From a virus, in the IMG/VR virus record IMGVR_UViG_3300029555_000016, positions 1 to 34,440 of that record: DNA of 34,440 nt; one strand, given 5' to 3'. Under the pieces are notes generated by a model. That model had not been told where the DNA came from. It saw nothing but the letters and a program-made list of their open reading frames with translations, and did no database searches. This document shows, piece by piece, positions 4,918-15,627 of the stretch (position 1 is its first letter; each line of letters opens with the position of its first letter). Made by a program: the position numbers and the translations under genes.

Positions 4918-5107
4918 CGCACACCTCGATGTTGATAAAATCTTCCTTGGATTTTTGTTTGATTTCTTCTTGAATTTTTATATCTGCTAATTCATGAGTC
5001 CAAACGGATCTGCCCAGTTTTTCCTCAATGTATTGGTGCATATCTGCAAAGTTCCCGATTAACATTCCTGTGTAAGCCGATACAATCGCCGCTTCTCTTT
5101 TAGTCAC
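4910..5107 (-). CDS. Hypothetical phage protein
   Basis: Start moved to GTG 5107, which lies 6 nt after GGAGG. Translation reads VTKREAAIVSAYTGMLIGNFADMHQYIEEKLG... Confidence 0.55.
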   Translation of the reverse strand: MTKREAAIVSAYTGMLIGNFADMHQYIEEKLGRSVWTHELADIKIQEEIKQKSKEDFINIEVCDD

Positions 5108-5148
5108 CGCACACCTCCGTTTCAATCTCATTTATCTTTTTATAAATT

Positions 5149-6579
5149 TTATCCACGTCGTCGTCCACTACACAGCAGTTGCCGACTATATAACTTTTCA
5201 GCTTCTCTCCAAATTCTTTTACTGTATTCTCCGCTCCTTTTATGTACTCCAAAATGATATTTCGTAACTGCTATCGGGAACTCCTCAATTTCGCTCGCCC
5301 AAAGACAACTTCCTTTCCCGTTGAGTTCTTCCCAGATCAGCGGAAAACCTCCGATTCCGTCAAATAGACTTGCCATTGTCGCGTTTCTTTCGTAACACGC
5401 GCAAAGCCGCTTTATTACCCACCGCCACGGCGGCAGTGCTATCGAATTACCCAGTGCCTTATACCGCGCCGCATCGCTCGTTTTATGTACCTTTCCCGCG
5501 TCGTCCGTCCATTCGCCTATATTCGTCCAATTATCGGGATAGCCTTGCAAGCGCTCGCATTCTAACGGCGTTAAACGACGTATCCCGTATGAGTTCATTA
5601 CGGCTTGCTGGTCATGCATACAGTTTAGCGCACCTGACTTTTCGTGCAAATCCGTTTGATTTTTCTGTCCGTTTCCCACTGCATAACACACCGCTCCCGG
5701 ACCTTTCGACGTCAAAGAAAACGCTGTTCCTTTATCGTCTATTCCGACGGCGTATTTTGCATTCTTGCCTTGATTATAGGCACTTCGGTCAAGGCATATC
5801 GGCACTTGATTACCGCTCGTTCCCATTCGGTTTTGTAACGTCAGAGCATTCTCCCCGCATTCTCTGATTACTTCGTCGGCATGACTCATATCGTAGCACA
5901 CCGCCATTCCTGTACTTCCCGCGCGCAAAGTTTCGCTTCGTTCTTCTTCCGCGCCCACGCTTCCCGCCTTACTGCCCATTAAGTAGTTAAACCCGATTGC
6001 CTTTCCAACGCTTCTTTCAGTATCGGCGGCAGCTCTTTCCCGCGTTTCTCCGCCCGCCGTAACACGCCCCTGCAAGCTTTTTCGGACAAATAATATTTCG
6101 GGTGCGGATTCTCCTCCAAAATCTGCGACAAGCGCGATTCTACGGCGACGCTGGGGCACTCCCCAAAACTGTGCGTCGAGTACTCGCCAAGCAACACTCC
6201 ACCCGTTTCCCATGATACACCCGCAAGTCCGCCACTTCCAGTTCGCAGGTCGAGGAATAACGGCTCCTTTATCCGCAATTCTTGCCGTTTCTTCCAACAC
6301 GACGCGGAAATCATCTCCGTCGTTTGAACTGAACGCGCCGAGTACGTTTTCCCACACCATATATCGAGGTCTAATTTCAGCTGCTCCACTTTTCTCGCTC
6401 GCCTCCCGCATTTCCTTGATTATCCGTATCTGCTCCATAAACAGTCCGCTGCGCACACCGTTTAATCCCGCGCGTTTCCCTGCTACCGACAGATCCTGAC
6501 ACGGACTCCCGCCGATTATTACGTCCACGGACGGCGCGGCGTAACCGCTTATTTTCGTTATATCACCGAGATGTTTCAT
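5149..6579 (-). CDS. DNA (cytosine-5) methyltransferase with non-canonical motif order (III-IV-VI-VIII-TRD-IX-X followed by I-II)
   Basis: Motifs in order: MKHLGDITK, GGSPCQDLS (IV), VWENV (VI), GVPQRRRRIALVADFGG (VIII), RRLTPLECERLQGYPDNW (IX), ALGNSIALP (X), then MASLFDGIGGF (I) and WASEIEEFPIAVTKYHF (II). Confidence 0.85.
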   Translation of the reverse strand: MKHLGDITKISGYAAPSVDVIIGGSPCQDLSVAGKRAGLNGVRSGLFMEQIRIIKEMREASEKSGAAEIRPRYMVWENVLGAFSSNDGDDFRVVLEETARIADKGAVIPRPANWKWRTCGCIMGNGWSVAWRVLDAQFWGVPQRRRRIALVADFGGESAPEILFVRKSLQGRVTAGGETRERAAADTERSVGKAIGFNYLMGSKAGSVGAEEERSETLRAGSTGMAVCYDMSHADEVIRECGENALTLQNRMGTSGNQVPICLDRSAYNQGKNAKYAVGIDDKGTAFSLTSKGPGAVCYAVGNGQKNQTDLHEKSGALNCMHDQQAVMNSYGIRRLTPLECERLQGYPDNWTNIGEWTDDAGKVHKTSDAARYKALGNSIALPPWRWVIKRLCACYERNATMASLFDGIGGFPLIWEELNGKGSCLWASEIEEFPIAVTKYHFGVHKRSGEYSKRIWREAEKLYSRQLLCSGRRRG

Positions 6580-6585
6580 TTTTCT

Positions 6586-7005
6586 TTAAACCAGTTTCAA
6601 TTCCACTTCAACTCTGGCGGAATACCCGTATACCTTTTCGACCGTCAAGGAAATTACTCCGCTATCATCGTAGTAGGCGACCCCGTTTAACGCATCTAAA
6701 ATTGATTTTGCGATGTTATCCACGTCAGGCTTTCCCGAAGGCTTGATCTCGCCTCTCAGCGCCGCCTCCCGCTTCTTTTTGGAAAACCTCGCGGGAATCT
6801 CGTACACCGCTTTGATATGTACCTCGAACAGGTTTTTCCCGTAATACCCGCCCCCTGACGCCTGATAGCTCCAACGCACCAGATCTTCATAGCTTTTCGT
6901 TTTCTCAGGCGTGATACTCTGCATTTTTCCCATTCGCCGATTGTAAAATGTTCTTGCACGCGCCTTTCCCTGCGGCTTTCCTTCAACGATGAATTTCATC
7001 TCCAC
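6586..7005 (-). CDS. rusA: RusA-family Holliday-junction resolvase
   Basis: ..GKPQGKARAR.. and ..KPDVDNIAKSILDALNGVAYYDDSGV.. are typical RusA motifs. Confidence 0.88.
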   Translation of the reverse strand: MEMKFIVEGKPQGKARARTFYNRRMGKMQSITPEKTKSYEDLVRWSYQASGGGYYGKNLFEVHIKAVYEIPARFSKKKREAALRGEIKPSGKPDVDNIAKSILDALNGVAYYDDSGVISLTVEKVYGYSARVEVELKLV

Positions 7006-14418: not shown

Positions 14419-15627
14419 ATGGAACACGACGATATTAAATTAGAAATAGTCGATATAAACGACGGAGAAGCTCTGATCGAAGCGGCAAAGCCAAAAGGAA
14501 AACCGCTGACCGAGGAACAGAAACGCGCGCTTATCCGAGCGCAAAAGAAAAAAGAAGAAGAAAAAAGGAAATTGGGCGTTTTGCATTTCACTCAGGAGGA
14601 ATGGAAAAAAATGCCCAAGAATGTAAAAAGAGCCTTTAAAGTTCACGGAATATTCGGTCGCCCGCGCATGACCGAAGACGGATTATATCAGATTCGTACC
14701 CGCGCGCATGGGTTGAATATCCAAGTTACGCATAAAGATTTCACCGTTTGCAAAGAATTATACGTGCAAGCCTTGGAGAACGCTTTGGAGGGCGTAGAAA
14801 CGTCGAAAAGGAAAGCTCCCGTATGTTTTATCGAATATATGTGCCAATGGCTGGAAACCGTAAAGAAACCCTCTGTAAAACCCGTTACTTACGCGGATTA
14901 CAGACAAACCTTTATCGCATATATCAGTCCCGCGTTTTCCGAAAGAAAAATAAAAGATATTTCCCGTCAGGAATTGCAGGAATTTATTAACAGTTATTCG
15001 GAGTCTGGGAAAAATAGAACGGCAAAAAAGATTTACCAGCTTTTGAATGCTGCATTCGATTATGCCGTAGAGGATGAGCTTATTTCCAAAAGCCCTATGG
15101 AGCGCGTTGTTTTGCCCAAATACGAGCAGGAACACGGACAGGCGCTCACTCGTGCGGAAGAAAAAGAATTTATCGAGAGAGCTAAAAAGACGTCTTATTT
15201 CGGGGCTTTGATTTTCCTGCTTTATACGGGCTTGCGGCGTTCGGAACTCGCAAGCGTAATAATCGACGGAGAATGGATACGGCTTGTTTCCGCAAAGCAA
15301 CGCAAAGGCGCAACCTTAAAAGAACGCTCTATTCCTATTACACCCATGCTTGAAAAAGTCCTTCCCGCGCTAAATCTTTCCGAAGTTAAAACAGTAAATC
15401 CCTCCATGTTGACAAAGTGGGTAAATAAGATTATGCCAAATCACCACTGCCACGATTTAAGACATACGTTTATTACACGCTGCCAAGAATGCGGAGTGCC
15501 TACTCCGATAGTCAGCCTTTGGGCTGGACATAAAATTTCGGGGATAGATTCTTCCCTTACCGTACAGGTATATTCCCACTATTCCGAGGAAACTCAGCTC
15601 TTAGAAGCCCGAAAAGTAAGATATTGA
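14419..15627 (+). CDS. int: Tyrosine integrase
   Basis: ..LLYTGLRRSEL.., HHCHDLRHTFITR, WAGHK and VYSHY make up the R..HxxR..H..Y catalytic set. The gene lies next to attP. Confidence 0.9.
   Translation: MEHDDIKLEIVDINDGEALIEAAKPKGKPLTEEQKRALIRAQKKKEEEKRKLGVLHFTQEEWKKMPKNVKRAFKVHGIFGRPRMTEDGLYQIRTRAHGLNIQVTHKDFTVCKELYVQALENALEGVETSKRKAPVCFIEYMCQWLETVKKPSVKPVTYADYRQTFIAYISPAFSERKIKDISRQELQEFINSYSESGKNRTAKKIYQLLNAAFDYAVEDELISKSPMERVVLPKYEQEHGQALTRAEEKEFIERAKKTSYFGALIFLLYTGLRRSELASVIIDGEWIRLVSAKQRKGATLKERSIPITPMLEKVLPALNLSEVKTVNPSMLTKWVNKIMPNHHCHDLRHTFITRCQECGVPTPIVSLWAGHKISGIDSSLTVQVYSHYSEETQLLEARKVRY

Follow-up and report, generated by a model that had tools for sequence, protein, structure and literature searches.

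Can a natural DNA cytosine-5 methyltransferase begin between its second and third conserved motifs and carry the first two at its C-terminal end? This question is raised by a minus-strand open reading frame (ORF) at positions 5149..6579 of the IMG/VR virus record IMGVR_UViG_3300029555_000016, of which we analyzed a stretch of 34,440 nucleotides (the window). A reading made from the sequence alone had described the ORF as a C5-cytosine methyltransferase (MTase) with motifs III to X first and motifs I and II last. We confirmed that the ORF encodes 476 amino acids from an ATG start, and found that its arrangement is not unique to this phage but belongs to a large natural family of enzymes broken between motifs II and III.

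Motif order and breakpoint of the methyltransferase

The ORF scores above the cut-offs of both Pfam PF00145 (134.6 bits, cut-off 22) and TIGR00675 (138.2, cut-off 100.65). Its motifs run in the order III-IV-VI-VIII-target-recognition domain (TRD)-IX-X-I-II (Table 1), not in the canonical linear order from I to X. A phmmer comparison with M.HhaI returns blocks that are not collinear: residues 403-444 match HhaI 15-54 (motifs I-II), 4-86 match 58-128 (III-VI), 128-151 match 146-169 (VIII), and 333-382 match 271-308 (IX-X). The alignment to the PF00145 profile is divided in the same manner, and both results bear out the motif order given by the sequence-only reading. The N-terminal part alone enters the profile at position 46 and the C-terminal piece alone covers positions 4-43, so the break is clean, with nothing lost or duplicated. 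By all tested features except linear motif order the ORF fits the C5-MTase family, and the unusual order is a feature of topology rather than of fold or chemistry.

Table 1. Features of the methyltransferase gene and its surroundings in the window (positions in the 34,440-nt stretch)
Feature	Position	Strand	Remark
RusA-like resolvase gene, directly upstream of the MTase	6586..7005	-	stop 6 nt before the MTase ATG
Circularly permuted C5-cytosine DNA methyltransferase ORF, 476 aa	5149..6579	-	residues 1-444 are the conserved enzyme
Motif III (HLGDITKI), new N-terminus	6550..6573	-	G5 invariant, D6 nearly invariant
Motif IV (GGSPCQDLS), putative catalytic Cys27	6487..6513	-	
GGGAGG Shine-Dalgarno-like hexamer	6402..6407	-	within MTase codons, 12 nt upstream of the ORF B GTG
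Nested +1-frame ORF B, 136 aa, GTG start	5979..6389	-	conserved tail ...GECPSVAVESRLSQILEENPHPKYYLSEKACRGVLRRAEKRGKELPPILKEALERQ
Motif VI (VWENV)	6343..6357	-	
Motif VIII (GVPQRRRRIALVADF)	6118..6162	-	
Variable region, residues 166-330	5590..6084	-	linker and four target-recognition-like cassettes
Cassette 1	within 5590..6084	-	GFNY..TLRAG
Cassette 2	within 5590..6084	-	DMSHAD..TLQNRMGTSGNQVP
Cassette 3	within 5590..6084	-	DRSAYNQG..SLTSKGPGAV
Cassette 4	within 5590..6084	-	GNGQ..ALNCMHDQQAV
Motif IX (RRLTPLECERLQGYPDNW)	5527..5580	-	
Motif X (YKALGNSIALP)	5431..5463	-	
Junction of old C-terminus and old N-terminus (PWRWVIKRLCACYERNAT)	5377..5430	-	length fixed
Motif I (MASLFDGIGGF), AdoMet loop, now near the C-terminus	5344..5376	-	internal Met codon 5374-5376
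Motif II (LWASEIEEFPIAVTKYHF)	5251..5304	-	S429 and E430 invariant
Non-conserved 32-residue C-terminal extension and stop codon	5149..5247	-	overlaps small ORF 5100..5252

We re-permuted the protein in silico by placing residues 402-444 ahead of residues 1-401. The rearranged sequence matches Pfam as one collinear stretch (profile 4-129) and scores 148.3 bits compared with 134.6 for the native order. The sequence-only reading had pointed to related phages as a place to look for orthologues in canonical order, and such enzymes exist in Streptococcus phage Javan102, in P1 (dmt), in Vibrio phage 1.171.O and in mycobacteriophage Porcelain. Against the Javan102 enzyme the native protein gives two non-collinear blocks, whereas the re-permuted one aligns as a single block (residues 1-444 to 7-495, E = 9e-84). 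The unbroken II/III junction in Javan102 reads ...TTKRMPEVKHLGDV, and a longer stretch over it reads ...FPIRVTTKRMPEVKHLGDVSEIKG. These canonical-order members of the clade (Javan102 gp32, the C5 domain of P1 Dmt, Vibrio 1.171.O gp80 and Porcelain gp116) share a GVPQRRRR / EILF signature with the window MTase, and also the nested +1 ORF described below. They carry motifs I and II at the N-terminus, unlike the window MTase, to which they are 35% identical after re-permutation and 57% identical in the I-II piece.

In the scheme of Albert et al. (2018), a break between motifs II and III is termed Type B and was reported to be absent from nature (PMC5944983). The window MTase has this arrangement: its chain starts between II and III, and the native termini are connected to each other. 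Among the engineered permutants of M.MpeI and M.SssI made by these authors, the II/III forms were the most active of all and that of M.MpeI was comparable to wild type (PMC5944983); the high activity of the engineered forms shows that this topology allows catalysis. Permutants of M.HaeIII obtained by directed evolution share the same topology as well, with the N-terminus in the II/III loop and the native termini joined directly. However, all of these are laboratory constructs specific for CG or GGCC, while the family described here is natural and abundant, has long modular variable regions, and is only about 23-25% identical to solved C5-MTases.

The naturally permuted enzymes of the zeta class (Type H; M.BssHII, M.Alw26I, M2.Eco31I, M.Esp3I and M2.BsaI) have the same fold in permuted form and, as in the window MTase, place motif X before motif I. 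They differ in that their N-terminus lies in the variable region, with IX and X ahead of I to VIII. In the window MTase motifs III-VIII precede the variable region, IX and X follow it, and only the beta1-alphaA-beta2-alphaB unit has moved. Plant DRM2 is another natural rearranged C5-MTase and also gives a non-collinear match by phmmer. Its motifs run VI-X and then I-V, with the break between V and VI, and it is a eukaryotic enzyme of RNA-directed DNA methylation.

The suggestion that a II/III breakpoint had not been described in nature has held up. When Albert et al. searched REBASE they found 27 permuted C5-MTases of natural origin, and in every one the break lay in the variable region (PMC5944983). 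A topology classification from 2025 recognizes only the canonical and M2.Eco31I-type classes for m5C enzymes. No natural Type B enzyme is apparent from the titles and abstracts of those citing papers of Albert et al. that were available to us, and our literature searches found no report of a natural II/III permutant. Members of the family are nevertheless already in public databases, where they are labelled just as cytosine methyltransferases.

Circular permutation is the accepted model for the diversification of DNA methyltransferase classes. The prokaryotic C5 enzymes previously offered one natural breakpoint class, a uniformity that has been read as evolution favouring pathways in which the two domains stay intact. 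The absence of II/III forms from nature had been a puzzle for which weaker binding of S-adenosylmethionine (AdoMet) was offered as a possible reason, and an abundant, conserved II/III family in gut phages removes it. Natural II/III sequences can also be used in the design of split or targeted methyltransferases. Pipelines for annotation or classification that assume a motif order, or that take a single Pfam hit, will mis-describe such enzymes.

Conservation, recurrence and predicted fold

Of 82 related loci in IMG/VR and GenBank phages, 77 contain the permuted gene whole, as one intact ORF; all motifs lie in this one ORF, unlike those of M.AquI and M.EcoHK31I, which are divided between two separately translated polypeptides. 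Close homologues all begin with M[KRI]HLGD[IV]TKI and end with ...SLFDGIGGF...WASEIEEF..AVT.. followed by a stop codon. Several contigs that were assembled independently encode a protein identical over all 476 aa. We searched 1.84 billion representative proteins with a 116-aa query that spans motif IX, motif X, the junction, motif I and motif II, and obtained 776 protein clusters (50% identity) at E <= 1e-30. The topology was verified for the best 150 of these, all of which span the X-to-I junction. Nearly all of the 150 match in one continuous stretch, which in most cases stops at the protein C-terminus or a few residues from it. The permuted family thus consists of at least 150 clusters and probably of about 776. 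One cluster member is listed in NCBI as 'Cytosine specific methyltransferase [Caudoviricetes sp.]'.

In species-representative genomes the same query identified 292 stretches that encode the junction, mostly in Clostridia, which places the arrangement in prophages of about 290 species. The best 80 stretches come almost entirely from gut Clostridia (Oscillospiraceae, Lachnospiraceae, Ruminococcaceae, Christensenellales and Acutalibacteraceae). The junction is common to cultured Faecalibacterium phages, IMG/VR contigs and GTDB genomes. One family member of 666 aa (P0492) also contains a Pfam PF13392 domain, which we take to be of the HNH endonuclease family; this suggests insertion of a homing endonuclease in a methyltransferase.

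Residues of functional importance are invariant or highly conserved. In 114 permuted members G5 (motif III), P26 (IV), E77-N78-V79 (VI), Q143, R145 and R147 (VIII), G377-N378 (X), F406-D407-G408 (I) and S429-E430 (II) are invariant, and D6, C27, Q28 and G410-G411-F412 are conserved in at least 90%. In 59 of 60 unique genes the GN of motif X and the residue that precedes SLFDG are spaced by 25. The IX-X-I-II region varies chiefly in the third position of its codons (1.3-1.6 bits), which is the pattern of a coding sequence maintained by purifying selection.

With 68 close homologues as input AlphaFold2 reached a predicted local distance difference test score (pLDDT) of 51, and a deeper alignment of the 114 diverse members allowed the core to be modelled, with a predicted template modelling (pTM) score of 0.65. 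In this second model ten-residue blocks over residues 1-20, 51-130 and 331-445 average pLDDT 71-98. Values are lower in the blocks of 21-50, near the catalytic loop (27-43), and of 131-170, near motif VIII (140-142). The I-II segment (pLDDT 87-94) is modelled as a beta1-alphaA-beta2-alphaB unit, consisting of a strand (402-405), a helix (411-420), a second strand (425-428) and a second helix (433-443). The top PDB matches in Foldseek are M.HhaI, M.MpeI, M.HaeIII, DNMT1 and MET1, all with probability 1.00, and the model thus has the Rossmann-like fold with the catalytic domain of C5-MTases.

The tail that follows the AVT of motif II is 4-12 aa long in most family genes and longest, at 37 aa, in the window, where it overlaps the start of a small ORF of 50 aa. 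Near-identical cluster members are 451 aa long, and the 32-residue extension is probably functionless read-through.

The sequence-only reading had proposed a tandem duplication followed by trimming of both ends, and this may have taken place in a canonical-order ancestor from the Javan102/P1-Dmt clade. The proposal remains plausible as a model, but we found no relic copies of motifs I-II or III-IV flanking the gene in any of the 82 loci.

A nested reading frame in the methyltransferase gene

We identified a second ORF, B, in the +1 frame of the MTase gene, where it overlaps codons 64-201 (motifs VI-VIII and the linker that follows). It was not mentioned in the sequence-only reading, and it is a more surprising feature than the permutation. 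The predicted product includes the peptide LSQILEENPHPK. The ORF occurs at the same position in loci L001-L089 and L170-L172 of our set, and in all related loci it is open, with 39-94% identity.

Several properties of the overlap distinguish this frame. In codons 72-190 the +1 frame is free of stop codons in 59 of 60 unique genes compared with 0 of 60 for the +2 frame, and stops in the +1 frame cluster just outside the nested ORF. Outside the overlap the third codon positions of the MTase frame have an entropy of about 1.5 bits; in codons 166-180 this drops to 0.54 bits, and directly beyond the nested stop it recovers to 1.6-1.7 bits. Within codons 166-195 first positions of the MTase frame vary more than third positions, which indicates that the +1 frame is the more constrained there. 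These patterns show that the nested ORF is under purifying selection.

The nested ORF also has its own Shine-Dalgarno sequence and start. A start codon (ATG, GTG or TTG) with a Shine-Dalgarno sequence ahead of it is present in 57 of 59 unique nested copies. This Shine-Dalgarno sequence is built from Lys/Arg-Glu codons of the MTase, as AAGGAG or AGGGAG in 48 of 58 genes, while elsewhere AAG makes up 40% of Lys codons and GAG 42% of Glu codons. The +1-frame start lies 7-13 nt downstream of it in 54 of the 58.

The nested peptide has about 865 database matches, nearly all of them short 'hypothetical proteins', and 142 phage records contain its tail (LSQILE..P.KYYLS.KAC.GILRRA..RGK.LP..L..AL). We examined seven distant phages (Javan102, mycobacteriophage Porcelain, P1 with its dmt gene, Vibrio 1.171.O, Cronobacter JK004, Enterobacter CobraSix and Aeromonas PhAER-6), and in all seven the nested peptide lies in the +1 frame inside an annotated methyltransferase gene. 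The motif order is canonical in the four whose sequences were examined, namely Javan102, Porcelain, P1 dmt and Vibrio 1.171.O. In Porcelain the 'DNA methylase' is annotated as two overlapping coding sequences in different frames, gp116 and gp117 (L087 1089..2289), and gp117 shares the +1 frame of the nested peptide. The dmt gene of P1 (L088 1861..3879) contains a +1 ORF of 165 codons with the conserved tail.

Searches of the nested peptide against Pfam and NCBIfam gave no relative. Only PHROG 16143, a family of 139 positions labelled 'DNA methyltransferase', matches nested peptides, namely those of Porcelain and Javan102. A likeness to the segment that follows motif VIII in Dcm-type enzymes was considered and set aside, as profile and sequence searches against all PDB chains gave no match (E = 0.92 and 1.7). 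About half of the nested copies (32 of 59) begin with Q-x-x-L-F or Q-L-x-L-x-L, which may be similar to motifs that bind the sliding clamp; this likeness is speculative.

In a few relatives the two frames are fused. In Faecalibacterium phage FP_Toutatis (L001 2501..3912) and in proteins P0322, P0365 and P0411, the N-terminus of the MTase continues in frame into the nested +1 peptide while the remaining enzyme sits in a second ORF, and phage Lelie gives the same two-piece match. We considered programmed frameshifting between the frames and rejected it: the junctions differ, at about MTase residues 48, 67, 74 and 112, and 57 of 59 copies have a start of their own. With differing junctions and independent starts the fusions look like indels or pseudogenes and not like recoding.

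M.EcoHK31I likewise has an additional ORF in another frame of its MTase gene, and it is the only precedent that we could confirm for the nested ORF (PMC2836561). However, the beta chain of EcoHK31I supplies motif IX, which is missing from alpha, whereas the main chain in the window has motif IX and the nested product has no recognizable MTase motif. Our literature searches found no report of a nested gene in phage methyltransferases. We tentatively suggest, at somewhat less than even chances, that the locus is unusual in two ways: it belongs to a large natural Type B family, and its methyltransferase gene is dual-coding. In this reading a +1 protein of some 140 aa has a ribosome-binding site of its own and has been retained within the motif VI-VIII region of the methyltransferase clade, in phages of Bacillota, of Actinomycetota and of Pseudomonadota and also in P1 dmt, and it would serve as an obligatory partner of the enzyme, for example as an accessory subunit or an adaptor between methylation and replication. 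If expressed, it would be a deeply conserved overlapping gene in double-stranded DNA phages that has gone unnoticed even in P1, and it may bear on how phage methyltransferases work.

Alternative readings and genomic context

The permuted motif order and its conservation, the invariance of functional residues, the completeness of the domain and the confident fold model are shown by the analysis. We consider it likely that the ORF specifies an active DNA cytosine-5 methyltransferase, circularly permuted by nature and made as one chain, which belongs to a temperate phage of gut Clostridia. In such an enzyme the chain would start in a surface loop between motifs II and III. Cys27 of PCQ would be the nucleophile, with ENV and QxRxR forming the catalytic pocket, and the variable cassettes would read the DNA sequence. 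The AdoMet-binding beta1-alphaA-beta2-alphaB unit with motifs I and II would be joined after the motif X helix through the junction of fixed length. Several points weigh against this interpretation. The window copy has an atypical 32-residue tail past motif II, Foldseek aligns only about 160 collinear columns (because it aligns sequentially), and the variable region is poorly modelled (pLDDT below 50), with no detected homology of its cassettes to characterized target-recognition domains. We infer the docking of the I-II segment next to motif X from confidence values only, and Albert et al. raised the possibility of weaker AdoMet binding by Type B permutants (PMC5944983). Methyltransferase activity, the 5-methylcytosine product, the target sites and the biological role are predictions.

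Other readings would divide the enzyme or deny it a function. The sequence-only reading, which had placed the internal Met codon correctly, allowed that the I-II piece might be translated separately from it and join a III-X polypeptide in trans. In M.MpeI the fragments [1-61] and [62-395] do complement each other in vivo (PMC5944983), and the window gene and 49 of 60 unique genes of the family have the internal ATG. In the other 11, however, Met is replaced by Leu, encoded by CTC, CTT and in one case CTG, and CTC and CTT are not start codons. No Shine-Dalgarno sequence precedes the internal Met in the window, even a weak one is found in only 18 of 64 family sequences, and the III-X and I-II parts are always in one frame, with no stop between them and at a fixed spacing of 25 residues. 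Given a Met that is not conserved, the lack of a Shine-Dalgarno sequence and the in-frame fusion, a separately made I-II subunit is improbable. We regard as still less probable, to the point of being scarcely credible, that the ORF is an assembly chimera, or that it has no function and is what decay has left of two methyltransferase genes in tandem. Collapse or trimming of a tandem duplication would yield this motif order, the window copy has its odd C-terminal read-through, and a few relatives are broken (4 of the 82 loci and FP_Toutatis), but the same junction recurs in hundreds of independent assemblies from cultured Faecalibacterium phages, IMG/VR and GTDB. This recurrence across samples rules out an assembly artefact, and the invariant functional residues, the coding pattern of evolution and the lack of relic motif copies beside the gene all speak against decay.

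A further possibility adds to the single-chain enzyme and does not replace it. The permuted chain may need the product of the nested ORF as an accessory subunit, which would make the MTase a two-protein enzyme. The nested ORF has its own start and Shine-Dalgarno sequence, is under purifying selection, and is found only inside MTase genes of the clade (in seven of the seven distant phages checked) and never alone. There is also a precedent, as M.EcoHK31I alpha depends on a beta chain read from a different frame of its own gene (PMC2836561). However, the main chain already has all ten motifs, and the nested peptide matches no Pfam or NCBIfam family, solved structure or methyltransferase motif. 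We judge such a dependence to be rather unlikely, although a good deal less so than a split enzyme.

The variable region ranges from 73 to 478 aa in 238 family members. The four cassettes of the window are found in many combinations among these, and the content of the region is modular and mosaic. The short cassettes each end in a TL / GG..VP-like or AVCY-like element and are shuffled, gained and lost between relatives. They recall the multispecific orphan enzymes M.SPRI, M.Phi3TI and M.H2I of Bacillus phages, which have several tandem recognition modules between motifs VIII and IX. However, the Bacillus phage enzymes keep the motifs in canonical order, and a search with the cassettes detected no sequence relationship to them and matched gut Clostridia phage genes only. 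The MTase probably acts on several target sequences, but with matches of this kind multispecific self-protection against host restriction is an inference.

The neighbours of the MTase include genes for a RusA-like resolvase, a DnaB-like helicase, Erf and SSB, which identifies the locus as a replication and recombination module of a temperate phage. No restriction endonuclease was identified among the ten neighbouring genes that we annotated, which cover part of the window. Given its place in this module, the MTase most likely methylates phage DNA and so would allow it to evade host restriction. The sequence between the RusA stop and the MTase start (6579..6588, minus strand, TAAAGAAAAATG) contains no Shine-Dalgarno sequence, and in many relatives a stop codon likewise lies 3-6 nt upstream of the MTase start. 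The short distance and the missing Shine-Dalgarno sequence make translational coupling to the RusA gene likely.

The window looks like a nearly complete temperate phage genome of 34.4 kb. It encodes a tyrosine-type integrase (14419..15627) on the plus strand, opposite to most of its genes, and a near-identical protein is found on a contig of 34,468 bp. In two related Clostridia prophages (L083 and L085, 4594..5105 in each) a YoeB/ParE-type toxin and a Phd/YefM antitoxin are encoded about 1 kb downstream of the MTase.

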